Assembly: GCF_044704955.1 (NCBI RefSeq)
Contig: NC_091980.1
Span: forward strand, 293,942,001-294,006,000
Reading direction: 5' to 3'
Length of the DNA stretch: 64,000 bases
Source of the DNA: Pristiophorus japonicus
Lineage: Eukaryota
The notes below the pieces were generated by a model. That model searched no databases. It saw nothing but the letters and a program-made list of their open reading frames with translations, and had not been told where the DNA came from. Made by a program: the position numbers and the translations under genes. This document shows positions 1 through 51,300 of this stretch, one piece after another; the stretch's first letter is position 1; every line of letters starts with the position of its first letter.

Positions 1-295
1 AGNNNNNNNNNNNNNNNNNNNNNNNNNNNNNNNNNNNNNNNNNNNNNNNNNNNNNNNNNNNNNNNNNNNNNNNNNNNNNNNNNNNNNNNNNNNNNNNNNN
101 NNNNNNNNNNNNNNNNNNNNNNNNNNNNNNNNNNNNNNNNNNNNNNNNNNNNNNNNNNNNNNNNNNNNNNNNNNNNNNNNNNNNNNNNNNNNNNNNNNNN
201 NNNNNNNNNNNNNNNNNNNNNNNNNNNNNNNNNNNNNNNNNNNNNNNNNNNNNNNNNNNNNNNNNNNNNNNNNNNNNNNNNNNNNNNNNNNNNNN

Positions 296-3060
296 GAGAG
301 TGAGTGTGCAGGAGAGAGAGAGTGAGTGTGCAGGAGAGAGAGAGAGAGAGAGTGAGTGTGCAGGAAAGNNNNNNNNNNNNNNNNNNNNNNNNNNNNNNNN
401 NNNNNNNNNNNNNNNNNNNNNNNNNNNNNNNNNNNNNNNNNNNNNNNNNNNNNNNNNNNNNNNNNNNNNNNNNNNNNNNNNNNNNNNNNNNNNNNNNNNN
501 NNNNNNNNNNNNNNNNNNNNNNNNNNNNNNNNNNNNNNNNNNNNNNNNNNNNNNNNGGAGAGTGAGTGTGCAGGAGAGAGGGAGAGTGAGTGTGCAGAAG
601 AGAGAGAGAGNNNNNNNNNNNNNNNNNNNNNNNNNNNNNNNNNNNNNNNNNNNNNNNNNNNNNNNNNNNNNNNNNNNNNNNNNNNNNNNNNNNNNNNNNN
701 NNNNNNNNNNNNNNNNNNNNNNNNNNNNNNNNNNNNNNNNNNNNNNNNNNNNNNNNNNNNAGAGTGAGTGTGCAGGAGAGAGAGAGAGAGTGCATAGGAG
801 AGAGAGAGAGAGTGTGCAGGAGAGAGAGAGAGTGTGTGCAGGAGAGAGAGAGTGTGTGCAGGAGAGAGAGAGTGAGTGTGCAGGAGAGAGAGAGAGAGAG
901 AGAGTGAGTGTGCAGGAGAGAGAGAGAGTGTGCAGGAGAGAGAGAGAGTGTGCAGGAGAGAGAGAGAGAGAGTGAGTGTGCAGGAGAGAGAGAGAGTAAG
1001 TGTGCAGGAGAGAGAGNNNNNNNNNNNNNNNNNNNNNNNNNNNNNNNNNNNNNNNNNNNNNNNNNNNNNNNNNNNNNNNNNNNNNNNNNNNNNNNNNNNN
1101 NNNNNNNNNNNNNNNNNNNNNNNNNNNNNNNNNNNNNNNNNNNNNNNNNNNNNNNNNNNNNNNNNNNNNNNNNNNNNNNNNNNNNNNNNNNNNNNNNNNN
1201 NNNNNNNNNNNNNNNNNNNNNNNNNNNNNNNNNNNNNNNNNNNNNNNNNNNNNNNNNNNNNNNNNNNNNNNNNNNNNNNNNNNNNNNNNNNNNNNNNNNN
1301 NNNNNNNNNNNNNGAGAGTGAGTGTGCAAGAGAGAGAGAGAGTGAGTGTGCAGGAGAGAGAGAGTGAGTGTGCAGGAGAGAGAGAGAGAGAGTGAGTGTG
1401 CAGGAAAGNNNNNNNNNNNNNNNNNNNNNNNNNNNNNNNNNNNNNNNNNNNNNNNNNNNNNNNNNNNNNNNNNNNNNNNNNNNNNNNNNNNNNNNNNNNN
1501 NNNNNNNNNNNNNNNNNNNNNNNNNNNNNNNNNNNNNNNNNNNNNNNNNNNNNNNNNNNNNNNNNNNNNNNNNNNNNNNNNNNNNNNNNNNNNNNNNNNN
1601 NNNNNNNNNNNNNNNNNNNNNNNNNNNNNNNNNNNNNNNNNNNNNNNNNNNNNNNNNNNNNNNNNNNNNNNNNNNNNNNNNNNNNNNNNNNNNNNNNNNN
1701 NNNNNNNNNNNNNNNNNNNNNNNNNNNNNNNNNNNNNNNNNNNNNNNNNNNNNNNNNNNNNNNNNNNNAGTGCATAGGAGAGAGAGAGAGTGTGTAGAAG
1801 AGAGAGAGAGTGTGCAGGAGAGAGAGAGAGAGAGAGTGTGTGCAGGAGAGAGAGAGTGTGTGCAGGAGAGAGAGAGTGTGTGCAGGAGAGAGAGAGTGAG
1901 TGTGCAGGAGAGAGAGAGAGAGAGTGTGAGTGTGCAGGAGAGAGAGAGAGTGTGCAGGAGAGAGAGAGAGTGTGCAGGAGAGAGAGAGAGTGAGTGTGCA
2001 GGAGAGAGAGAGAGTAAGTGTGCAGGAGAGAGAGAGAGAGATTGAGTGTGCAGGAGAGAGAGAGAGAGAGTGAGTGTGCAGGAGAGAGAGAGAGAGAGTG
2101 TGAGTGTGCAGGAGAGAGAGAGAGTGTGCAGGAGAGAGAGAGAGTGTGCAGGAGAGAGAGAGAGTGAGTGTGCAGGAGANNNNNNNNNNNNNNNNNNNNN
2201 NNNNNNNNNNNNNNNNNNNNNNNNNNNNNNNNNNNNNNNNNNNNNNNNNNNNNNNNNNNNNNNNNNNNNNNNNNNNNNNNNNNNNNNNNNNNNNNNNNNN
2301 NNNNNNNNNNNNNNNNNNNNNNNNNNNNNNNNNNNNNNNNNNNNNNNNNNNNNNNNNNNNNNNNNNNNNNNNNNNNNNNNNNNNNGAGAGTGAGTGTGCA
2401 GGAGAGAGAGAGTGAGTGTGCAGGAGAGAGAGAGAGAGAGAGTGAGTGTGCAGGAAAGNNNNNNNNNNNNNNNNNNNNNNNNNNNNNNNNNNNNNNNNNN
2501 NNNNNNNNNNNNNNNNNNNNNNNNNNNNNNNNNNNNNNNNNNNNNNNNNNNNNNNNNNNNNNNNNNNNNNNNNNNNNNNNNNNNNNNNNNNNNNNNNNNN
2601 NNNNNNNNNNNNNNNNNNNNNNNNNNNNNNNNNNNNNNNNNNNNNNNNNNNNNNNNNNNNNNNNNNNNNNNNNNNNNNNNNNNNNNNNNNNNNNNNNNNN
2701 NNNNNNGGAGAGTGAGTGTGCAGGAGAGAGGGAGAGTGAGTGTGCAGAAGAGAGAGAGAGAGAGTGAGTATGCAGGAGAGAGAGAGGGGGAGGGAGGGAG
2801 AGAGAGTGTGCAGGAGAGAGAGAGTGGGAGGGAGAGAGAGTGCGAAGGAGGGAGCGCGAGGGGGAGGGAGGGAGAGCGAGTGCGAAGGAGGGAGCGCGAG
2901 GGGGAGGGAGGGAGTGGGAAGGAGAGAGGGAGGGACGGGAAAAGAGAGAGCGCGAGAGGGAGGGAGGGGGAGTGAGAGAGCGCGAGTGGGAGGGAGGGGA
3001 AGGGAGAGTCGAGAGCGAGAGAGTGTCGAGTGCGAGGACAAGGGAGGGGGAGAGAGAGAT
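296..3060. repeat. Compound (GA)n/GTGTGCAG simple-repeat array with many N gaps, grading into GGGA-rich sequence
   Basis: Unit gtgagtgtgcag(ga)n repeated throughout; interrupted by N runs; ORFs here are low-complexity RE/ESV artefacts. Confidence 0.95.
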
Positions 3061-3108
3061 TGATTGCGAGAGATTGGGTACATATAGATTGGGTTAACCA
3101 AATTGGTA

Positions 3109-4925
3109 GAACATAAGAACATAAGAATTAGGAACAGGAGTAGGCCATCTAGCCCCTCGAGCCTGCTCCGCCATTCAAAAAGATCATGGTTGATCTGGCT
3201 GTGGACTCAGCTCCACTTACCCGCCCGCTCCCTATACTCCTTAATTCCCTTATTGGTTAAAAAATTATCTATCTGTGATTTGAATACATTCAATGAGCTA
3301 GCCTCAACTGCTTCCCTGGGCAGAGAATTCCACAGATTCACGACCCTCTGGGAGAAGAAATTCCTTCTCAACTCGGTTTTAAATTGGCTCCCCTGTATTT
3401 TGAGGCTGTGCCCCCTAGTTCTAGTCTCCCCTACCAGTGGAAACAACCTCTCTGCCTCTATCTTGTCTATCCCTTTCATTATTTTAAATGTTTCTATAAG
3501 ATTCCCCCCTCATCCTTCTGAACTCCAACGAGTAAAGACCCAGTCTACTCAATCTATTATCATAAGGTAACCCCCTCATCTCCGGAATCAGCCTGGTGAA
3601 TCGTCTCTGTACCCCCTCCAAAGCTAGTATATCCTTCCTTAAGTAAGGTGACCAAAACTGCACGCAGTACTCCAGGTGCGGCCTCACCAATACCCTGTAC
3701 AGTTGCAGCAGGACCTCCCTGCTTTTGTACTCCATCCCTCTCGCAATGAAGGCCAACATTCCATTCGCCTTCCTGATTACCTGTTGTACCTGCAAACTAA
3801 CTTTTTGGGATTCATGCACAAGGACCCCCAGGTCCCTCTGCACCTCAGCATGTTGTAATTTCTCGCCATTTACTGTTTTTTTTCCCAAGGTGGATGACCT
3901 CACATTTTCCGACATTGTATTCCATCTGCCAAACCTTAGCCCATTCGCTTAACCTATCTAAATCTCTTTGCAGCCTCTCTGTGTCCTCTACACAACCCGC
4001 TTCCCCACTAATCTTTGTGTCATCTGCAAATTTTGTTACACTACACTCTGTCCCCTCCTCCAGGTCATCTATGTATATTGTAAAAAGTTGTGGTCCCAGC
4101 ACCGCTCCCTGTGGCACACCACTAACCACCGATTTCCAACCTGAAAAGGACCCATTTATCCCAACTCTCTGCTTTCTGTTAGCCAGCCAATTCTCTATCC
4201 ATGCTAATACATTTCCGCTGACTCCGCGTACCTTTATCTTCTGCAGTAACCTTTTGTGTGGCACCTTATCGAATGCCTTTTGGAAATCTAAATACACCAC
4301 ATCCATCGGTACACCTCTATCCACCATGCTCGTTATATCCTCAAAGAATTCCAGTAAATTAGTTAAACATGATTTCCCCTTCATGAATCCATGTTGCGTC
4401 TGCTTGATTGCACTATTCCTATCTAGATGTCCCGCTATTTCTTCCTTGATGATAACTTCAAGCATTTTCCCCACTATAGATGTTAAACTAACCGGCCTAT
4501 AGTTACCTACCTTTTGTCTGCCCCCTTTTTTAAACAGAGGCGTTACAGTAGCTGCTTTCCAATCCACTGGTACCTCCCCAGAGTCCAGAGAATTTTGGTA
4601 GATTATAACGAATGCATCTGCTATAACTTCTGCCATCGCTTTTAATACCCTGGGATGCATTTCATCAGGACCAGGGGACTTGTCTACCTTGAGTCCATTA
4701 GCCTGTCCAGCACTACCTCCCTAGTGATAGTGATTGTCTCAAGGTCCTCCCTTTCCACATTCCCGTGACCAGCAATTTTTGGCATGGTTTTCGTGTCTTC
4801 CACTGTGAAGACCGAAGCAAAATAATTGTTTAAGGTCTCAGCCATTTCCACATTTCCCATTACTAAATCCCCCTTCTCATCTTCTAAGGGACCAACATTT
4901 ACTTTAGTCACTCTTTTCCTTTTTA
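3109..4925 (-). mobile_element. CR1/HER1-type LINE, 5'-truncated, ORF2 reverse transcriptase to 3' tail
   Basis: Minus ORFs with NYRPVSLTS, QHGFMKGKSCLTNL, YLDFQKAFDKVPH, SGVPQG, KFADDTK; 8-nt tail repeat (ttcttatg)n at ~3109-3128. Confidence 0.95.
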
Positions 4926-4935
4926 TATATATATA

Positions 4936-7388
4936 ATGCAGTGGAGGAGGATTTCCTAGAGTGTATTAGGGATGGCATTCTTGACCAATATGTCGAGGAA
5001 CCAACTAGAGAGCTGGCCATCCTACACTGGGTGTTGTGTAATGAGAGAGGACTAATTAGCAATCTTGTTGTGCAAGGCCCCCTGGGGAGGAGTGACCATG
5101 GTATGGTGGAGTTCTTTATTAAGATGGAGAGTGACGGTGTTGGTTCAGAGACTGGGGTCCTGAGCTTGAGGAAGGGTGGCTTCGGTGGTATGAGATGTGG
5201 GTTGGCTGGGATGGACCGGCAGATGATGCTTAGAGGGTTGACACTGGATGGGCAATGGCAGAGATTTATAGATTACATGGATAAACTTCAACAGTTGTAC
5301 ATCCCTGTCTGGAGTAAAAATAAAAAATAAAAAGAGGAGGGTAGCTCGGCCGTGGCTAGCGGGGAAATTGGGGATGGTGTTGAATCCAAGGAAGAGGCAT
5401 GTGGATTGGCCGGGGGCGGGGAGGGGGCGGGAGGGAGGGGCAGCGTGCCTGAGGACTGGGAGAGGTTTGGAGTTCAGCAGAGGAGGAAAGGGGGTCTGGT
5501 TAGGAGGGGGAAAATAAGAGTGTGGGAGGGAGCTTGCTGGGAGCATGGGAACTGACTGCAGGAGCTTCTGAGGATGTGTGAAGAGAGGAGGATTGGTGGG
5601 GACCGACGTGGGTCCTTTGCAGGTAGAATCAAGTGAATTTATGGTGAGGAACAAAGAAAATGGCAGACCAATTGAATAAATACTTTGGATCTGTCTTCAC
5701 GCAGGAAGACACAAATGACCTTCCGGAAATACTAGGTTCGGGTGTCTGGTGAGGGGCAGGAACTGAAGGAGGTCCTTATTGGTCGGGAAGTTGTGTTGGG
5801 GAGGTTGATTGGGATTGAAGGCCCGGTGGATCTCCGGGGCCTGATGGCTGCATCCCAGAGTACTTAAGGAAGCGGCCCGAGAAATAGTGGATGCATTGGT
5901 GATCATTTTCTAACATTCTGTTGACTCTGGATCGGTTCCTATTGATTGGAGGTTAGCTAGTGTAACACCACTTTTTGAAAGAGGAGGGAGAGAGAGGGCA
6001 GGTAATTGTGGACCGGTTAGCCTAATATCGGTAGTGGGGAAAATGTTGGAATCAATTATTGAAGATGAAATAGCAGCACATTTGGAGGACAGTGACGGGA
6101 TCGGTCCAAGTCAGCATGGATTTATGAAAGGAAAATCATGCTTGACGAATCTTCTAGAATTTTTTGAGGATGCAACTAGTAGAGTGGACAAGGGAGAACC
6201 AGTGGATGTGGTGTATTTGGACTTTCAAAGGGCTTTTGACAAGGTCCCACACGGGAGATTAGTGTGCAAAATTAAAGCACATGGTATTGGGGGTAATGTA
6301 TTGATGTGTATGGAGGGCTGGTTGGCGGACAGGAGGCAGAGAGTGGGACTAAACGGGTCCTTTTCAGAGAGGCGGGCGGTGACCGGTGGAGTACCGCAGG
6401 GTTCAGTGCTGGGACCCCAACTATTTACAATGTACATCGGTGATTTGGATGAGGGAGTTGAGTGTAGTGTCTCCAGGTTTGCTGAGGACACTAAGCTGGG
6501 TGGTAGTGAGAGCTGTGGGGAGTATGCTAAGGGGCTGCAGGGTGACTTGGACGGGTTGGGTGGGTGGGCAGGTGCATGGCAGATGCAGTATAAGGTGGAT
6601 AAATGTGAAGTTATCCACTTTCGTGGCAGGAATGGAAGGACAGAGTATTGTCTGAATGGTGACGGATTAGGAGGGGGGGGAGGTGCAACGAGACCTGGTT
6701 GTCATAGTACATCAGTCATTGAAGTTTGGCATGCAGTTACAGCAGGCGGTGAAGAAGGCAGATGGCGTGTTGGCCTTCATAAGTGAAGGATTTGAGTGTG
6801 GGAGCAGGGACGTCTTGCTGCAGTTGTACAGGGCCTTAGTGAAGCCACACCTGCAATATTGTGTTCAGTTTTGGCCCCCTAATCAGAGGAAGGACGTTCT
6901 TGCTATTGAGGGAGTGCAGCGAGGGTTCACCAGATTGATTCCAGGGATGGCAGGACTGACGTGGAGAGAGACTGGATCGACTGGGCTTGTATCCACTGGA
7001 GTTTGGAGGAATGAGAGGGGATCTCATGGAAACATGTAGAATTCTAATGGGATTGGACGGGTTGGAGGCAGGAGGAATGTTCCCGTTGCTGGGGAGTTCC
7101 AGGGCCAGGGGGCATAGTCTAGGGATGGGGGGTGGGCCATTTGGGACTGAGATGAGGAGAAACTTCTTCACCCAGAGTGGTTAACCTGTGGAATCCTCTA
7201 CCGCAGTTCGTTAGAAATATTCAAAAGGGAGTTAGATAGGGCCCTTATGGCCAAAGGGATCAAGGGGTATGGAGAGAAAGCAGGAAACGGGTACTGAGGT
7301 TGAATGATCAGCCATGATCATATTGAATGGTGGTGCAGGCTCGAAGGGCCTACTCCTGCCTCTAATTTCTATGTTCCTATGTTTCTAT
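4936..7388 (+). mobile_element. CR1/HER1-type LINE, 5'-truncated, carrying dense A-to-G substitutions
   Basis: RT motifs in ORF 6034-6786 (QHGFMKGKSCLTNL, YLDFQRAFDKVPH, GVPQG, FAEDTK); tail tttctatgttcctatgtttctatg at ~7366-7388; colinear with copy at 20310-22478. Confidence 0.95.
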
Positions 7389-7675
7389 GAAATCGCAAAA
7401 ACCCGAAAATCCAGACCTAAATTTGCTGTTCGTAGAGTCATACAGCACAGATGGTGTTGATTCAAACTGGAGCTATCTACTCTAATCCCTTGCCCATATC
7501 CTTTTTTTTTCAAGCTATGTGTCCAGGTGACGAGCATTAAAATGTTAATAACATTGAAAGAGATCGGGACCATTTACACCTTTTTAAGTTGAAATTCGGT
7601 GAATGATGAGTGGTGCCATCACCAATCGGACAGGAAACAAGTTCCCCCTTTTAACGGGGCACAACCAATAAAGTT

Positions 7676-20309: not shown

Positions 20310-22478
20310 GAATTCTTTATTAAGATGGAGAGTGATAGTATTAATTCAGAGACTAGGGTTCTGAACATAAGGAAAGGTAACTTCGATGGTATGAGACGTG
20401 AATTGGCTAGGATAGACTGGCAAATGACACTTAAAGGGTTGACAGGCAATGGCAGACATTTAAACATTACATGGATGAACTTCAACAATTGTACATCCCT
20501 GTCTGGAGTAAAATTAAAACGGGGAAGGTTGCTTAACCGTGGCTAACAAGGGAAATTAGGGATAGTGTTAAATCCAAGGAAAAGGCATATAAATTGGCCA
20601 GAAAAAGCAACAAACCTAAGTACTGGGAGAAATTTAGAATTCAGCAGAGGAGGACAAAGGGTTTAATTAGGAGGGGGAAAATAGAGTATGAAGAAGCTTG
20701 CAGGGAACATAAAAACTGACTGCAAAAGCTTCTATAGATATGTGAAGAGAAAAAGATTAGTGAAGACCAACATAGGTCCTTTGCAGTCAGAATCAGGTGA
20801 ATTTATAATGGGGAACAAAGAAATGGCAGACCAATTGAACAAATACTTTGGATCTGTCTTCACTAAGGAAGACACAAATAACCTTCCGGAAATACTAGGG
20901 GACCGAGGGTCTAGCGAAAAGGAGGAACTGAAGGAAATCATTTGTCAGGAAATTGTGTTAGGAAGTGGCCCTAGAAATAGTGGATGCATTGATGATTATT
21001 TTCCAACATTTTATTGACTCTGGATCAGTTCCTATGGACTGAAGGGTAGCTAATGTAACACCATTTTTTAAAAAAAGGGAGAGAAAACAAGAAATTATAG
21101 TTAGCCTGACATCGGTGGTGGAGAAAATGTTGGAATCAATTATTAAAGATGAAATAGCAATGCATTTGGAAAGCAGTGACAGGATCAGTCCAAGTCAGCA
21201 TGGATTTAGGAAAAGGAAATCATGCTTGACAAATCTTCTAGAATTTGTTGAGGATGTAACTAGTAGAGTGGACAAGGGAGAACCAGTGGATGTGGTGTAT
21301 TTGGACTGTCAAAAGGCTTTTGACAAGGTTCCACACAAGAGATTAGTGTGCAAAATTAAAGCACATGGTATTGGGGTAATGTGTTGATGTGGATAGAGAA
21401 CTGGTTGGCAGACAGGAAGCAGAGTTGGAATAAACGGGTCCTTTACAGAATAGCAGGTAGTGACCAGTGGGGTGCCGCAGGGTTCAGTGCTGAGACCCCA
21501 GCTATTTACAATATACATCAATGATTTAGAAGGAATTGAATGTAATATCTCCAAGTTTGCAGATGACACTAAGCTGGGTGGCAGTGTGAGCTGTGAGGTG
21601 GATGGTAAGAGGCTGCAGGGTGACTTGGACAGGTTAGGTGAGTGGGCAAATGCATGGCAGATGCAATATAATGTGGATAAATGTGAGGTTATCCACTTTG
21701 GTGGCAAAAACAGGAAGACAGAATATCTGAATGGTGACAGATTAGGAAAAGGGGAGGTGCAACGAGACCTGGGTGTCATGGTACATCAGTCATTGAAGTT
21801 TGGCATGCAGGTACAGCAGGCGGTGAAGAAGGCAAATGGCATGTCGCCTTCATAGCTAGAGGATTTGAGTATAGGAGCAGGGAGGTCTTACTGCACTTGT
21901 ACAGAGCCTTGGTGAGGCCACACCTGAAATATTGTGTTCAGTTTTGGCCTCCTAATCTGAGGAAGGATGTTTTTGCTATTGAGGGAGTACAGCGAAGGTT
22001 CACCAGATTGATTCCCGGAATGGCAGGACTGACATATGAGGAGAGACTGGATCAACTGGACTTGTATCCACTGGAGTTTAGAAGAATGAGAGGGGATCGC
22101 ATAGAAACATAAAATTCTGACGGGATTGGACAGGTTAGAGGCAGGAAGAATGTTCCCGTTGCTGGTGAGTTCCAGAACCAGGGATCACAGTCTAAGAATA
22201 AGGGGTGAGCCATTTAGGATGGAGATGAGGAGAAACTTCTTCACTCGGAGAGCTGTTAACCTGTGGAATTCTCTACCGCAGAGAGTTGTTGAGGCCAGTT
22301 CGTTAGATATATTCAAAATGGAGTTAGATATGGCCTTTATGGCCAAACGGATCAAGGGGTGTGGAGAGAAAGCAGGCAAAGGGTACTGAGGGAATGATCA
22401 GCCATGATCTTATTGAATGGCGGTGCAGGCTCGAAGGGCCGAATGGCCTACTCCTGCCCCTAGTTTCCATGTTTCTAA
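20310..22478 (+). mobile_element. CR1/HER1-type LINE in NPC2-B intron 2, 5'-truncated and frameshifted
   Basis: RT motifs in ORFs 21115-21387 and 21460-21855 (SGVPQG, KFADDTK); tail tttccatgtttct. Confidence 0.95.
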
Positions 22479-24006
22479 GATAGGGAGGACTGGCCCGAGA
22501 CTGCCCTTGCTCCTTCTAGCAGCTGGCACTTGGCCAGTTCTGAAACAACCAATTGTTGTTTCAAAAACAAATTTACACTCAAACAAGATATACCTCAGCT
22601 AAATGCACATTAAAGCTCCCTCTATTCTTGAATAATGTGCCCGAATCTTCACTTTAGCAGAACTCTCATCTCCCTACTCTGTGGATATCTTTCGAATCTC
22701 TGCTGGAGATATCTGTGTTGAGGCCGCTCGGTTGGAAGTTATAATCAGCTCAAACTCATTTCAGTTGGCAACAGCACAGCAAGGGGAGACACCCATCAGC
22801 CGGTGCTGGATCTGAACCCCATTTTGGAGATACAAAAAAAGGGCAGGACAGTGTGTTAGAGCACTTCTCCATCCAGTCTATCTGATGGTCAGTGCACGAA
22901 GAAAATGGGATTGCAATTTTGGTAAATAAATGTTAAAATGTTTCAGTGGGTGGAAATAAATGCAGCTACTCTCTGTTCACCTCTGGTGTGACCTCATTTC
23001 CAAGACTGCATCATCTAAAGTTTTATAAACAGAATGCTGGAAAGCCAGCATGGTCAATACCCAAAAGCTGATGTCACAACAAACAAGATTATTCAGTTTA
23101 CCGTGTCAAAATCTATCCATTGAAACCTACAGTTTCCCCATTACACTATCTCTGCTTCCTGAATGATTCCAGAGATTTGAACCCAAGATCAAGTGTTGAT
23201 CACTGAAGTGCTTCCCGACTACAACCCTCAACTTGTCTTTTTTTTTTTAAATCAGTTCGTACCTACTGAGGATTAACTTCTGAAAGATCCAATCTCATTT
23301 GCTTCCTTCCAAGGTTTAAAGAGTCAAAGTTTTGCTAACGTTTCCTCAGATACGAGGAAAGCAGCCTTCTGGTTCATCTTTGCAACGCACACTTTGCTGT
23401 TTTCCTTGTACTTCTGTGACCAGAGCTGAAACCACTATTCAAGATGGGGCCAGACAAGAGTCCTACAGCTAGACTCGTCCTCTGATTTAACAATATCATA
23501 CAGCATGGTTTGCTTTGATCATTTCTACTCTGCAATGATTGCACAGTGGAGTATCATCATTCCCAGATATCTCTCAGCCTCCCCTCTCCTCCTAGTTTGA
23601 CACCATTCACTATGTCCCACGTATCCCCGCCCATCCCACCCCAAAAGACCTTGCACTTCTCATTGAATTTCAGCTGCTATAATTCTGCCATTTGGAAATA
23701 TTGACTAGGTCTTTCCAGAACTCCTCAGCTCCTTCAGACTCTGCCGCCCCCTCAGTTTGGTAACCCACTGGAAATTTGGCCAGCTTACGTTGCATTTCTG
23801 AGCCACGTTGATCAAAAACAATAGTGGAGCCAGCATCAATCCTTGAAATGTTCCAGTTGGTGTAACATTCTAGCCCAATAACACTCTCTTAACAAATGGC
23901 TGTTGCTTCCTCTCTTTCATTCTCTTCCTTACCCATCATCTCCAAGTTTTACCTAGGATAGCCGTTACCTCAAGATCTAGCAACCTTTCATATGGAATTG
24001 CAATTA

Positions 24007-25587: not shown

Positions 25588-26754
25588 CTGTAACAAGAGA
25601 GTTAATGTCACTTATCCCAAAGAGGTGCACGGATAAATTAACAGAAGCTTGATGCAGAATATGGATGAACTACACCTAGCACCAAAGTACATGCACAGTG
25701 GACAATTAGCTAAAGCAATGGGCTATCTCGAGAATGAACTGGATCTTTCAATTCATACTCCTCTCTCCTCACCCCCCCCCCCACCCCCCACCCCCAACCT
25801 ACACCACAGGAACAGCAACAAGTTCTCACATGACTAATTATACAGCAGCAGCGGTTTTAAAGCACATGAAACCATCACGTGAAATGCTAAGGGTGTCTCG
25901 GTTTTAGGCGGCTTCCTCCTTACTTCAGGAGGCTCCTCAGAAAACATCTATTTCAGAAATAAACTTTGATGCAGATGTACAGTGCATTGCCAATTTTGGG
26001 GTGAAGTAACCGTTGCAGACAAGCACACGGGATTACTCGCAGTCGAGGTGTAAAAAGGGCATGAGGAGATTCAGGAATCTTGCATGTTGAGAAAAGCAAC
26101 GTCAACCAAAGAGAAAAGACAATGTCTTCACTGGTTAATGCAACGGCTGCAAGGGCAGGACACTGGGACGGTACAGCACATCACAAGACTGGGTAGGCTA
26201 ACTGTTCATGCCAGTGGTTGCACGCTTCCTGTCCCCACCTAACCAAAAAAAAATCTACACCAGGCCAATTCATTCCAGGGATTTTTGCAGATGGTCAGTC
26301 AAAAAGAGAGCAGTATATCACCAAGTTGTTCGGAGCCAGAGGAGGGAAAATCCTGTACAGGTATTCTAAAGGAGCTTCAATAATGTAACAGCTGCCTGAC
26401 ATTGAGCAAAAGTAGTAATATACAAAACCATATCCAGCTTGATCAGGAAATTGCATAATTATATTATTTCATTCATAATTAAGTGAACTATGCATCTATT
26501 GGATTCAAGTACATTCTTATTGCAACTTTGACTGCGATTTAAAACCAACACTAGTTTGGAAACGTTGAGTAAGACGGCGAAGCAGTCAAGGTCACGTTGA
26601 TTTTTTTTAAAAAGGAAACATGAATCATGTAACTGCAAGTTAAATTGGTAATCACACTCGATCATTTAAAATGGCAGAAGTAGGCAATGGAAATGATACC
26701 TCCTGGAGAGTGGTCCAAAGCTGATTTCGCTCGGGGCGGCCCCCCCCAAGCGAT

Positions 26755-27560
26755 AAGGGGGTGTGGGGGCTGTGCCCCCCCCAGAGAAAAGGGGGTGTGG
26801 TACCCCCCAGAGAAAAGGGGGTGTGGGGGCCGTACCCCCCCCAGAGAAAAGGGTGTGTGGGGGCCGTGCCCCCCCCCCAGAGAAAAGGGGGTGTGGCCCC
26901 CCAGAGAAAAGGGGGTGCGGGGGCCGTGTCCCCCCAGAGAAAAGGGGGTGCAGGGGCTGTGCCCCCCCAGAGAAAAGGGGGTGCGGGGGTCGTGCCCCCC
27001 CCCCCCGAGAAAAGGGGGTGTGGGGGCCGTACACCCCCACAGAGAAAAGGGGGTGTGGGGGCCGTGCCCCCCAGAGAAAAGGGGGTGCCCCCCCAGAGAA
27101 AAGGGGGTGCGGGGGCCATGCCCCCCCCAGAGAAAAGGGGGTGTGGGGGCCGTGCCCCCCCCCCCCAGAGAAAAGGGGGAGGGCCCCCCCCAGAGAAAAG
27201 GGGGAGGGCCCCCCCCAGAGAAAAGGGGGAGGGCCCCCCCCCAGAGAAAAGGGGGAGGGCCCCCCCCCAGAGAAAAGGGGGAGGGCCCCCCCCAGAGCAA
27301 AGGGGGAGGGCCCCCCCCAGAGCAAAGGGGGAGGGCCCCCCCCAGAGAAAAGGGGGAGGGCCCCCCCCAGAGAAAAGGGGGAGGGCCCCCCCCCCCAGAG
27401 AAAAGGGGGAGGCCCCCCCCCCCAGAGAAAAGGGGGAGGCCCCCCCCCACCCCAGAGAAAAGGGGGAGGCCCCCCCCCACCCCAGAGAAAAGGGGGAGGC
27501 CCCCCCCCACCCCAGAGAAAAGGGGGAGGCCCCCCCCCAGAGAAAAGGGGGAGGGGGGGC
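26755..27560. repeat. GC-rich minisatellite, core CnAGAGAAAAG5, ~23-37 bp units
   Basis: More than 25 copies of ccccagagaaaagggg with variable spacers; six-frame Pro/Gly ORFs are artefacts. Confidence 0.95.
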
Positions 27561-48351: not shown

Positions 48352-51300
48352 CAGTGGCAGGAAGTAAAGGGTAATGGTCGGCGATGTTTTTGTGACTGGA
48401 AGGCGTTTTCCAGTGGAGTTCCGCAGGGCTCAGTACTATGACCCTTGCTTTTCATGGTATATATCAATGATTTAGACTTGAATGTAGGGGGCTTGATTAA
48501 GAATTTGCAGATGATTGGCTGTGTGGTTTATAGTAAGAAAGCTGTAGACTGCAAGAAGATATCAATGGACTGGTCAGGTGGGCAGAAAAGTGGCAAATGG
48601 AATTCAATCCGGAGAAGTGTGAGGTTAATGTGTTTGGGGAGGACAAACAAGGCAAGGGAATACACATTACGCGGTGGGATACTGAGGAGTATAGAGGAAC
48701 AGAGAGACCTTGGAGTCCACAGATTCCTGAAGGTAGCAGGCCAGGTAGATAAGGTGGTTAAGAAGGCATACGGGATACTTTCCTTTATTAGCAGAGTCAT
48801 AGAAACATAGAAAATAGGTGCAGGAGTAGGCCATTCAGCCCTTCTAGCCTGCACCGCCATTCAATGAGTTCATGGCTGAACATGCAACTTCAGTATCCCC
48901 TTCCTGCTTTCTCGCCATACTCCTTGATCCCCCCTAGTAGTAAGGACTTCATCTAACTCCCTTTTGAATATATTTAGTGAATTGGCCTCAACAACATTCT
49001 GTGGTAGAGAATTCCACAGGTTCACCACTCTCTGGGTGAAGAAGTTTCTCCTCATCTCGGTCCTAAATGGTTTACCCCTTATCCTTAGACTGTGACCCCT
49101 GGTTCTGGACTTCCCCAATATTGGGAACATTCTTCCTGCATCTAACCAGTCTAAACCCGTCAGAATTTTAAAAGTTTCTATGAGGTCCCCTCTCATTCTT
49201 CTGAACTCCAGTGAATATGAGCCCAGTTGATCCAGTCTTTCTTGATAGGTCAGTCCCACCATCCCGGGAATCAGTCTGGTGAATCTTCGCTGCACTCCCT
49301 CAAGAGCAAGAATGTCCTTCCTCAAGTTAGGAGACCAAAACTATACACAATACTCCAGGTGTGGCCTCACCAAGGCCCTGTACAACTGTAGCAACACCTC
49401 CCTGCCCCTGTACTCAAATCCCCTCGCTATGAAGGGCAACATGCCATTTGCTTTCTTAACCGCCTGCTGTACCTGCATGCCAACCTTCAATGACTGATGT
49501 ACCATGACACCCAGGTCTCGTTGCACCTCTCCTTTTCCTAATCTGTCACCATTCAGATAATAGTCTGTCTCTCTGTTTTTACCACCAAAGTGGATAACCT
49601 CACATTTATCCACATTATACTTCATCTGCCATGCATTTGCCCACTCACCTAACCTATCCAAGTCACTCTGCAGCCTCATTGCATCCTCCTCGCAGCTCAC
49701 ATTGCCACCCAACTTTGTGTCATCCGCAAATTTGGAGATACTACATTTAATCCCCTCGTCTAAATCATTAATGTACAATGTAAACAGCTGGGGCCCCAGC
49801 ACAGAACCTTGCGGTACCCCACTAGTCACTGCCTGCCATTCTGAAAAGTACCCATTTACTCCTACTCTTTGCTTCCTGTCTGACAACCAGTTCTCAATCC
49901 ACGTCAGCACACTACCCCCAATCCCATGTGCTTTAACTTTGCACATTAATCTCTTGTGTGGGACCTTGTCGAAAGCCTTCTGAAAGTCCAAATGTACCAA
50001 CTGGTTCTCCCTTGTCCACTTTACTGGAAACATCCTCAAAAAATTCCAGAAGATTTGTCAAGCATGATTTCCCTTTCACAAATCCATGCTGACTTGGACC
50101 TATCATGTCACCTCTTTCCAAAAGCGCTGCTATGACATCCTTAATAATTGATTCCATCATTTTACCCACTACTGAGGTCAGGCTGACCGGTCTATAATTC
50201 CCTGTTTTCTCTCTCCCTCCTTTTTTAAAAAGTGGGGTTACATTGGCTACCCTCCACTCGATAGGAACTGATCCAGAGTCAATGGAATGTTGGAAAATGA
50301 CTGTCATTGCATCCGCTATTTCCAAGGCCACCTCCTTAAGTACTCTGGGATGCACGGCCTTCAATCCCATCAATTTCCCCAACACAATTTCCCGACTAAT
50401 AAAGATTTCCCTCAGTTCCTCCTCCTTACTAGACCCTCTGACCCCTTTTATATCCGGAAGGTTGTTGGTGTCCTCCTTAGTGAATACCGAACCAAAGTAC
50501 TTGTTCAATTGGTCTGCCATTTCTTTGTTCCCCGTTATGACTTCCCCTGATTCTGACTGCAGGGGACCTACGTTTGTCTTTACTAACCTTTTTCTCTTTA
50601 CATACCTATAGAAACTTTTGTAATCCGCCTTAATGTTCCCTGCAAGCTTCTTCTCGTACTCCATTTTCCCTGCCCTAATCAAACCCTTTGTCCTCCTCTG
50701 CTGAGTTCTAAATTTCTCCCAGTCCCCGGGTTCGCTGCTATTTCTGGCCAATTTGTATGCCACTTCCTTGGCTTTAATACTATCCCTGATTTCCCTTGAT
50801 AGCCACGGTTGAGCCACCTTCCCTTTTTTATTTTTACGCCAGACAGGAATGTACAATTGTTGTAGTTCATCCATGCAGTCTCTAAATGTCTGCCATTGCC
50901 CATCCACAGTCAACCTCTTAAGTATCATTCGCCAATATATCCTAGCCAATTCATGCCTCATACCTTCAAAGTTACCCTTCTTTAAGTTCTAAAAAAAAAA
51001 ATATAAGTCATAAAATATAAGAGCAGGGAGGTTATGCTTCAATTGTATAAAACACTAGTTAGGCCACAGCTGGAGTACTACGTGCAGTCTGGTCACCACA
51101 TTACAGGAAAGATGTGATTGCGCTACAGAGGGTACAGCAGAGATTTACGAGGGTATTGTCAGGACTGGAGAATTTTATCTCAAGGTAAGATTGGATATGC
51201 TGAGGTTGTTTTCTTTAAAAATGAGGAGGCTGAGGGGAGAATTTAAGTGAAGTGCATGAAATTATGAAGGGACCAGATAGAGTGGATAGGAGGGACCTAT

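Follow-up and report, generated by a model that had tools for sequence, protein, structure and literature searches.

Introduction

The closest described counterparts of the locus reported here are ADAR editing of RNA and the footprints that deaminases leave in retroelements. Human ADARs have been described as preferring 5' neighbours in the order U>A>C>G and, on the 3' side, G first (PMC3113232), and the same neighbour preference, with G depleted 5' and enriched 3', has been described for hyper-edited RNA reads (Porath et al. 2014, PMC4365171). Hypermutated avian retroviruses with A-to-G changes were reported by Hajjar and Linial (1995) and Felder et al. (1994), as cited in a review (PMC12925331). 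In the case of the APOBEC fossils in genomic DNA, the screening filter described by Knisbacher and Levanon (2016, PMC4866542) retained G-to-A and not A-to-G changes. Moreover, ADAR1 was reported to restrict human L1 independently of editing, and transfected L1 RNA was reported as unedited in cells; the editing of intragenic LINEs was left open by the authors (Orecchini et al. 2017, PMC5224506). Full-text searches, covering mainly papers outside subscription journals, showed no account of LINE copies that were edited by ADAR and fixed in a germline.

The DNA analysed here, referred to as the window, is a stretch of 64,000 nt from the assembly of Pristiophorus japonicus (5.92 Gb). A first-pass annotation made from the letters alone had proposed that one CR1 copy in the window is a genomic fossil of ADAR hyper-editing. 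In the following, S1 and S2 denote the two sister copies in the window, C4 the contig of the window, C13 the contig of the donor, and L with a number the loci fetched from the genome. A donor and an inverted partner, P2, were found on another chromosome, where both lie at the same host gene; the copy is therefore likely ADAR-edited double-stranded RNA that was written back into the germline. That the changes are real and due to ADAR, whatever the partner, we regard as nearly certain; that the window copy derives from an ADAR-edited host pre-mRNA duplex of donor and P2, retrocopied into the germline by a CR1 reverse transcriptase, we consider very probable.

Extent and anatomy of the edited copy

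The main body of the edited CR1-type LINE copy lies at 4935..7389 on the plus strand; it is 5'-truncated, consists of ORF2 and the 3' UTR, and carries terminal TTTCTATG-type repeats. We take the element to be a CR1 from its likeness to shark LINE features, and a domain search placed an RVT_1 domain (E 4.4e-22) at 5914-6675. The element is longer than the 5085-7150 given by the first-pass annotation; its real span is 3079-3110 plus 4935-7389, and it is joined upstream to a GA-rich array. The true 5' end (3079..3110, plus strand), at the same truncation point as that of the donor, was severed by the later insertion of a younger CR1 of another subfamily (3110..4934, minus strand). This inserted CR1 is not hypermutated and serves as an internal control, with 2 A>G and 4 T>C changes, 1.4% divergence from its family and 97-98% likeness to its own sisters.

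The A>G tract was delimited to 5089..7143 (plus strand), the stretch that P2 would pair with, and 170 of the 644 donor As in it are changed if sites with a G>A change in the donor only are left out of the count. An unedited 5' part (4935..5088, plus strand) precedes it, P2 ending at the equivalent of about 5079, and an unedited 3' part (7144..7389, plus strand), which holds the 3' stem-loop region and the tail repeats and lies within the cover of P2, follows it. A G-rich insertion of 21 nt (5412..5433, plus strand) is without counterpart in the donor or the family, and two short-read contigs from a single sample disagree in it. At its 3' end the copy stops at short terminal repeats (7389), one unit more than in the donor, and the flanks of the two differ. 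The best match for a target-site duplication was 4 nt at most, and no empty insertion site was found among the fetched loci.

Upstream of the copy, a GA-rich tandem array occupies 1..3078 (plus strand; partly N in the window). Its last stretch matches the upstream flank of the donor, and the array was taken as a carried-along 5' flank that expanded later. It extends about 22 kb past the window start, to C4:293,920,190, and contains one assembly gap; the roughly 25 kb overall (1-3078 plus C4:293,920,190-293,942,000) compare with a flank of about 3.7 kb at the donor. The array seems to be a satellite that was seeded by retrotransposition and grew from the carried-along flank. As a separate observation, self-comparison showed a tandemly repeated stretch at 26733-27560 of the window.

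Substitution spectrum and neighbour context

Two further copies in the window were used as controls, namely S1 (20310..22480, plus strand), with A>G at 4 of 634 As, and S2 (48797..50989, minus strand), which belongs to a younger subfamily. S1 was rejected as the donor and serves as the unedited control. The hand count of the first-pass annotation was reproduced exactly: the ungapped 134-nt alignment of 5109-5242 to 20310-20443 has 19 A>G, 0 G>A and 6 other differences, the latter being 3 T>C, 2 C>T and 1 A>T. At the sites where both window sisters agree, A>G was counted at 135/586 As, together with 20 G>A, 8 T>C and 12 C>T. Both of the example changes that it quoted are present in the edited copy.

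For a full tabulation of the 12 substitution types, the family reference was the column majority of 51 copies, comprising the two window sisters and 49 genome copies, those among 58 fetched with a match of at least 1800 nt. Compared with this majority, the edited copy has A>G at 171/705, G>A at 24/651 and T>C at 7/533 sites, and 13 C>T changes. Only A>G is raised; the other 11 types, transversions included, stand at the background level of the sister copies. The A>G rate was 0.3-3.3% in 50 copies of the same group and 7.5% in S2, which is of the other subfamily. The G>A count lies inside the range of 11-44 in same-group copies, and sense-strand G>A clusters of the APOBEC type are absent. At the edited columns, G is nearly absent from the family (mean 1.5%, median 0). 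The patchiness noted earlier was confirmed: the edits, which run from 5089 to 7143, are clustered into 159 runs, compared with 210 ± 10 in 5000 shuffles.

The neighbour context of the changes is ADAR-like. By 5' neighbour, editing affected 53/127 As after T (.42), 81/214 after A (.38), 22/131 after C (.17) and 15/224 after G (.07), which agrees with the earlier remark that changed As mostly follow T or A; the depletion of 5' G (15/224 vs 156/472) is significant at p 5e-16. By 3' neighbour, the counts were 68/220 for G, 57/212 for A, 35/164 for T and 11/100 for C, so 3' C ranks low, unlike in the in vitro ADAR order. Among trinucleotides, TAG was changed most (24/43), and GAC and CAC were not changed at all. 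The background A>G changes of the sister copies have no such neighbour order. Codon position was ignored by the edits (47/188, 45/203 and 41/167), and 86 of the 114 hit codons are non-synonymous.

A polymerase error at insertion, with dG placed opposite template T by an error-prone second-strand polymerase or by a reverse transcriptase under skewed dNTP pools, would also give changes on one strand. DNA polymerase eta favours an A that is preceded by A or T, a pattern shared by the strand-specific A>G changes seen here, and no read-through of inosine would be needed. However, 24% of the As are changed with no rise in other changes, and a 3'-G preference is present. Moreover, the changes start sharply at the P2 end and have gaps at bulges, and the edits of the chimeric copies described below mostly stop at the junction. 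We hold such an error to be highly unlikely, and ADAR editing of the RNA template is the reading that we follow.

Reads, assembly and subfamily

The edited state was compared with short reads. A 379-nt contig of short-read run X1 corresponds to 5298-5676, carries the Gs and has zero differences from the assembly. A second contig, of run X3 from the same sample, spans 5344-5636, departs from the assembly by 5 differences and 3 gaps, and is likely the other allele. As the short-read runs may come from the assembled animal, they exclude an assembly error and do not represent a second individual. An error in the assembly, or an ordinary subfamily that already carries these Gs, was weighed as an alternative. 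A possible shared origin of reads and assembly leaves some room for the error; the X1 contig matches without difference and the X3 contig covers 5344-5636 as well. Against the subfamily, no copy more than 81% alike was found among 40 scored candidates, the best of which has A at these sites, the changes ignore codon position, and the copies found with a second motif (see below) share few edits. Both versions were given a negligible probability compared with editing of the template.

None of the four observations that the first-pass annotation had listed against its own reading, namely A in the reads, T>C as frequent as A>G, no depletion of 5' G, or an abundant subfamily carrying the Gs, was found when all four were examined.

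Donor of the edited copy

The source of the window copy was traced to an unedited donor at C13:96,520,845-96,518,400 (minus strand), which was the best of 40 scored matches to the edited stretch (L032). Donor and edited copy have in common the base at which they are truncated 5', the GA-array flank, a 17-nt deletion near 7204, two 2-nt deletions, an extra A near 5657, and 24 of the 69 non-A>G substitutions of the copy. At 173 edited sites, the donor has A at 163, G at 4, C at 1 and a gap at 5. From donor to copy, A>G was found at 176/768 As, together with 27 G>A, 14 T>C, 7 C>T and 33 transversions. The bias towards one strand and one context is retained when the donor is used as the reference, with 5' rates of.37 for T,.35 for A,.16 for C and.08 for G (p 2e-13), and 3' rates of.30 for G,.24 for A,.19 for T and.13 for C (p.005). 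Differences other than A>G amount to 81/2409, or about 1.7% a side.

The array flanks the donor on both sides, whereas the 3' limit of the window copy is the CR1 tail, followed by a different sequence. This speaks for a retrocopy that carried its 5' flank along, and against a DNA duplication. The donor is itself truncated and frameshifted, so the reverse transcriptase must presumably have acted in trans. These results support the earlier proposal that an RNA template was hyper-edited and then retrotransposed, with the refinement that the template came from a broken CR1 copy and not from an active master.

Inverted partner and host gene of the donor

In the 158 kb around the donor, two inverted copies more than 85% alike and longer than 1 kb were found, P1 and P2. 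P2 (C13:96,474,740-96,477,009) is 88.7% alike to the donor and lies 41 kb downstream in inverted orientation. Its truncation at the equivalent of about 5079 matches the start of the edited tract, since the first edit, at 5089, is 10 nt inside the P2 end. Beyond this end, 0 of 51 donor As are edited, with 3079-3110 counted in, compared with 23 of 66 in the 200 nt just inside. Divergence from the family is 3.8% for P2, 3.0% for the donor and 1.0% for P1, while the event is dated to about 1.7% a side and the inserted neighbour to 1.4%; judged from these divergences, the ages of P2 and donor would be compatible with the event and P1 would be too young. P1 (C13:96,526,050-96,528,994, upstream of the donor) was rejected as partner, as it covers the unedited 5' part and, at 1.0% from the family, is younger than the event. 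The adjacent antisense CR1 at 3110-4934 was also rejected, being only 67-70% alike, younger, situated inside the copy and unedited.

The tract also matches P2 at the bulges that four deletions in P2 (5701, 5859, 6502 and 6698) would produce. Within 20 nt of these deletions, 2 of 48 As are edited, compared with 168 of 596 elsewhere (permutation p.003), and widths of 15, 25 and 30 nt gave p values of.007-.015. Mock partners with at least 20 such sites (27 copies) had 8-39% edited, so that P2 lies below 27/27, and all mocks pooled had 23%; the test involves four deletions only and was conceived after the gaps had been seen. A rank correlation between editing and mismatches nearby failed to separate P2 from the mocks (rho -0.11; -0.08 ± 0.05 for 43 mocks, nine of which were at or below P2), although by the odds ratio at three or more mismatches P2 was second of 44. 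ADAR favours A:C mismatches and disfavours A:A and A:G. By pairing state with P2, editing affected 6/13 As in A:C mismatches, 146/460 paired As and 2/17 As in A:A or A:G mismatches, small numbers that several mocks resemble. The last 240 nt are unedited (0/67 As) although they are inside the P2 cover, so pairing alone does not explain their sparing.

Editing followed by retrotransposition could also have involved a duplex with other antisense CR1 RNA, supplied in trans or by a lost copy, in which case the fit to P2 would be due to chance. Antisense RNA should be plentiful with at least 119,669 family copies, the rank correlation is not specific to P2, and a joint transcript of donor and P2 is only predicted. 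In the region itself, just two inverted copies came into question and the other one is too young; the boundary was found within 10 nt of the P2 end with no edit outside, and editing near the deletions is lower than with all 27 mocks that have enough sites. A different partner is accordingly regarded as improbable, though the least so of the alternatives, and pairing with P2 remains the preferred reading.

Both elements flank the coding exons of one LRRC29-type F-box/LRR gene, which lie between donor and P2 and on the strand of the donor. The ATG (96,503,337), behind an acceptor-like site, is 15 kb downstream of the donor, and the stop is at 96,478,533. P2 begins 1.5 kb past the stop, with the first AATAAA just beyond P2. 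An ATTAAA precedes P2, and some transcripts may thus end earlier. This layout predicts that the donor sits within an intron of the 5' UTR and P2 within the 3' UTR. A predicted non-coding first exon above the donor is a guess from motifs (GC 57%, CpG o/e 0.59) and familiar promoter signals. Four sequencing runs showed no coverage of this putative promoter, a result given no weight for or against expression. One of the exons close to the donor matches, with 100% identity, proteins labelled as those of the sawshark Pristiophorus japonicus. In addition, plus-strand exons of the ELMO family were seen at C13:96.40-96.50 Mb, where they converge on the minus-strand LRRC29-type gene.

Other edited copies in the genome

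Many more edited copies are present in the assembly. A 25-nt motif from 7123-7147 was searched unedited, with three forced A>G changes, and with three forced T>C changes as a control, which gave 119,669, 160 and 1 matches, respectively. The scan for A>G clusters called for by the first-pass annotation was therefore positive by motif pairs, as distinct from an unbiased survey of random copies. With 7/533 in the window copy and 1 vs 160 genome-wide, T>C does not match A>G. The triple-A>G matches are divided 81/79 between the chromosome strands, so the bias follows the sense of the element.

A process acting on the DNA once it was inserted, be it GC-biased conversion, hypermutation at TpA or local damage to adenines, would agree with the net gain of GC and with TA as the most changed context. 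However, it would have to leave T>C at its low local rate, the motif control at a single match and the chromosome strands evenly represented, and to pass over the CR1 inserted in the copy as well as nine further repeat segments of the window, all with normal spectra. Hence, such a process has hardly any probability beside RNA editing.

Outside the motif, the first 30 of the 160 matches have A>G at 787/9916 compared with T>C at 75/8564, with 5' G depleted and a 3'-G preference (p 4e-6); a few of them are edited only locally (L104: 4 edits). A second motif gave 18 matches, and the 17 besides the window copy have A>G at 1120/5707 compared with T>C at 54/4956. Their 5' rates were.28/.26/.19/.11 (T/A/C/G) and the 3'-G preference was weak (p.06). 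These 17 copies share few edits, the highest Jaccard index, computed without alignment, being 0.33. One of them, L268 (C7:38.57 Mb), is very young, with 181/444 A>G and only 12 other changes, and the process is thus recent. L086, compared with 11 sisters of its own subfamily, has A>G at 146/790, and no donor for it stood out among 40 scored. By the triple-A>G motif, the raw edited share of the family comes to 0.13%, while the real proportion probably amounts to some tenths of one percent.

The sparing of the 3' end was profiled in both sets. Strict sparing of the last 100 nt was rejected as a rule, being strong in the first set (6/167, 2/209) and partial in the second, where 4/115 As in the last 50 nt and about 8% at 50-250 nt are edited and the edits of one copy come as close as 18 nt. 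The search motif biases both profiles; L097 and L095 were left out of the first-set profile, for which three copies had no anchor.

Sixteen of the first 30 motif matches belong to one chimeric family, in which a young body is followed by the terminal 310 nt of a subfamily of greater age. The junction motif has 1,345 matches genome-wide, and 4 of the first 30 (L138, L140, L144 and L146) have at least 8 tail edits; this tail-edited share of about 4/30 is far above the family-wide share. The tail edits mostly end at the junction of the old tail with the 70%-divergent body. As for an intrinsic structure at the junction, 501 nt were found to fold no better than shuffles (z 0.19), and this candidate was rejected.

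Near-identical edit patterns were found at unlinked loci in three groups, namely L096/L097, L098 and L115 (Jaccard.83-.91), L087, L090 and L111 (.71-.86), and L091 and L107 (.83), with other pairs at.15-.62; L096 and L097 share a flank and were counted as one. This suggests that edited chimeric copies re-amplified their own edits as masters, which they could become because the edits miss ORF2. The master locus of the chimeric family was not found in 30 long copies, which end in an array of about 37-nt units or overrun the fetched flank, and whose chimeric 3' end was confirmed for some only. In long young-body copies (L191, L186, L192, L179 and L195-L224), the start lies in this tandem array, joined to the end of ORF1; this array, too, resembles a 5' flank that was carried along, here from a truncated master. 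Beside the chimeric CR1 in L186, a broken gag/pol-like remnant at 1-1930 was judged by eye, from the raw translation, to be an LTR retroelement.

Several other observations were made on these copies. In the internal 3' stem-loop of the young body, AA>GG was seen in 17/30 chimeric matches (L117-L146) and 0/14 non-chimeric ones, at 84 and 72/71 nt before the junction; selected and duplicate loci are among the matches. The change may have been inherited as an edit or may mark a hot site, and it might inactivate the internal signal for the reverse transcriptase. L087 (= L140; C1:124.7 Mb) combines its shared tail pattern with 35/83 As changed in the young body, and has likely passed through two editing rounds. 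L094 and L095 (C1:509.6 and 512.4 Mb) have about 60% of As changed over about 350 nt, with a common 5' junction and pattern and distinct 3' flanks.

Proposed mechanism and significance

In the mechanism that we propose, the host pre-mRNA, with donor and P2 presumably in one transcript, would fold the donor onto P2, forming a duplex of about 2.2 kb closed by a 41-kb loop. The enzyme would be an ADAR, which would edit about a quarter of the duplex As and few at bulges; the assembly has 24 A_deamin matches on 6 contigs. A CR1 ORF2p acting in trans would bind the 3' tail of the donor, perhaps before P2 is transcribed. Such early binding would explain the spared 3' end, which the bound ORF2p would have protected, the order of binding being our inference. 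Target-primed reverse transcription would then begin at the internal tail repeats, read I as G and continue into the upstream array. According to PMC3747384, LINEs of this kind recognise a 3' stem-loop.

As for the ADAR-based route of LINE mutagenesis that the first-pass annotation had envisaged, the record of A>G changes in DNA stands. Since the donor was already a dead CR1 at a host gene, the changes look like a by-product of the editing of a host pre-mRNA duplex and not like defence.

According to this mechanism, A>I changes made at the RNA stage reach the germline, while the deaminase fossils of vertebrate retroelements are known as APOBEC G>A. Because donor, partner and product are present in a single assembly, the route is open to testing at single-base level, and the copy would be a direct read-out of past long-range RNA pairing in the germline. 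The CR1 reverse transcriptase can likely copy inosine-rich nuclear RNA of dead intragenic copies. Edited copies also inflate repeat ages, as a divergence of 13% is here really about 2%, and the motif-pair search is a cheap survey for any genome. With moderate confidence, we extend the reading to the LINE machinery in general, which would routinely back-copy ADAR-edited pre-mRNA duplexes, leaving hundreds of dated records, and turn re-amplified edits into heritable LINE subfamily variation through secondary masters. If this extension, somewhat better than an even guess, is true, each back-copied duplex would record, from a single molecule, how an ancient RNA was folded and edited, and ADAR would feed the variation of LINE subfamilies.

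Comparison with known systems

The edited element resembles the CR1-clade LINEs of sharks and rays, among which HER1 is listed in PMC3747384, by its features, namely an RT ORF, 5' truncation, short 3' repeats and abundance in a shark genome. As in the L1/ADAR1 work (PMC5224506), an ADAR would meet LINE RNA here, yet the shark RNA was heavily edited and still integrated. The APOBEC fossils (PMC4866542; Zaranek et al. 2010, PMC2873906), as described there, likewise consist of a strand-biased deaminase footprint in a copy compared with its source; they are G>A changes on the cDNA of LTR elements, whereas the shark case is A>G, from the RNA stage, with a partner geometry.

The hyper-editing of inverted pre-mRNA repeats, such as Alu pairs (PMC4365171), likewise gives dense A>G clusters in opposed repeats. 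In contrast to the Alu pairs, where that source describes the editing in RNA only, the shark case has its changes fixed in genomic DNA, at a new site, and involves a CR1 LINE, a duplex of about 2.2 kb and a 41-kb loop. For the avian retroviruses, an edited inverted repeat copied by reverse transcriptase, with up to about half of the As changed, is described in the review (PMC12925331). These are exogenous LTR retroviruses, whereas the shark element is non-LTR and germline-fixed, with a dead, host-embedded source and at least scores of copies. Every step of the proposed route thus has a precedent, and the locus adds to them a traced donor, a partner that predicts the edited tract, and edit patterns that were re-amplified.
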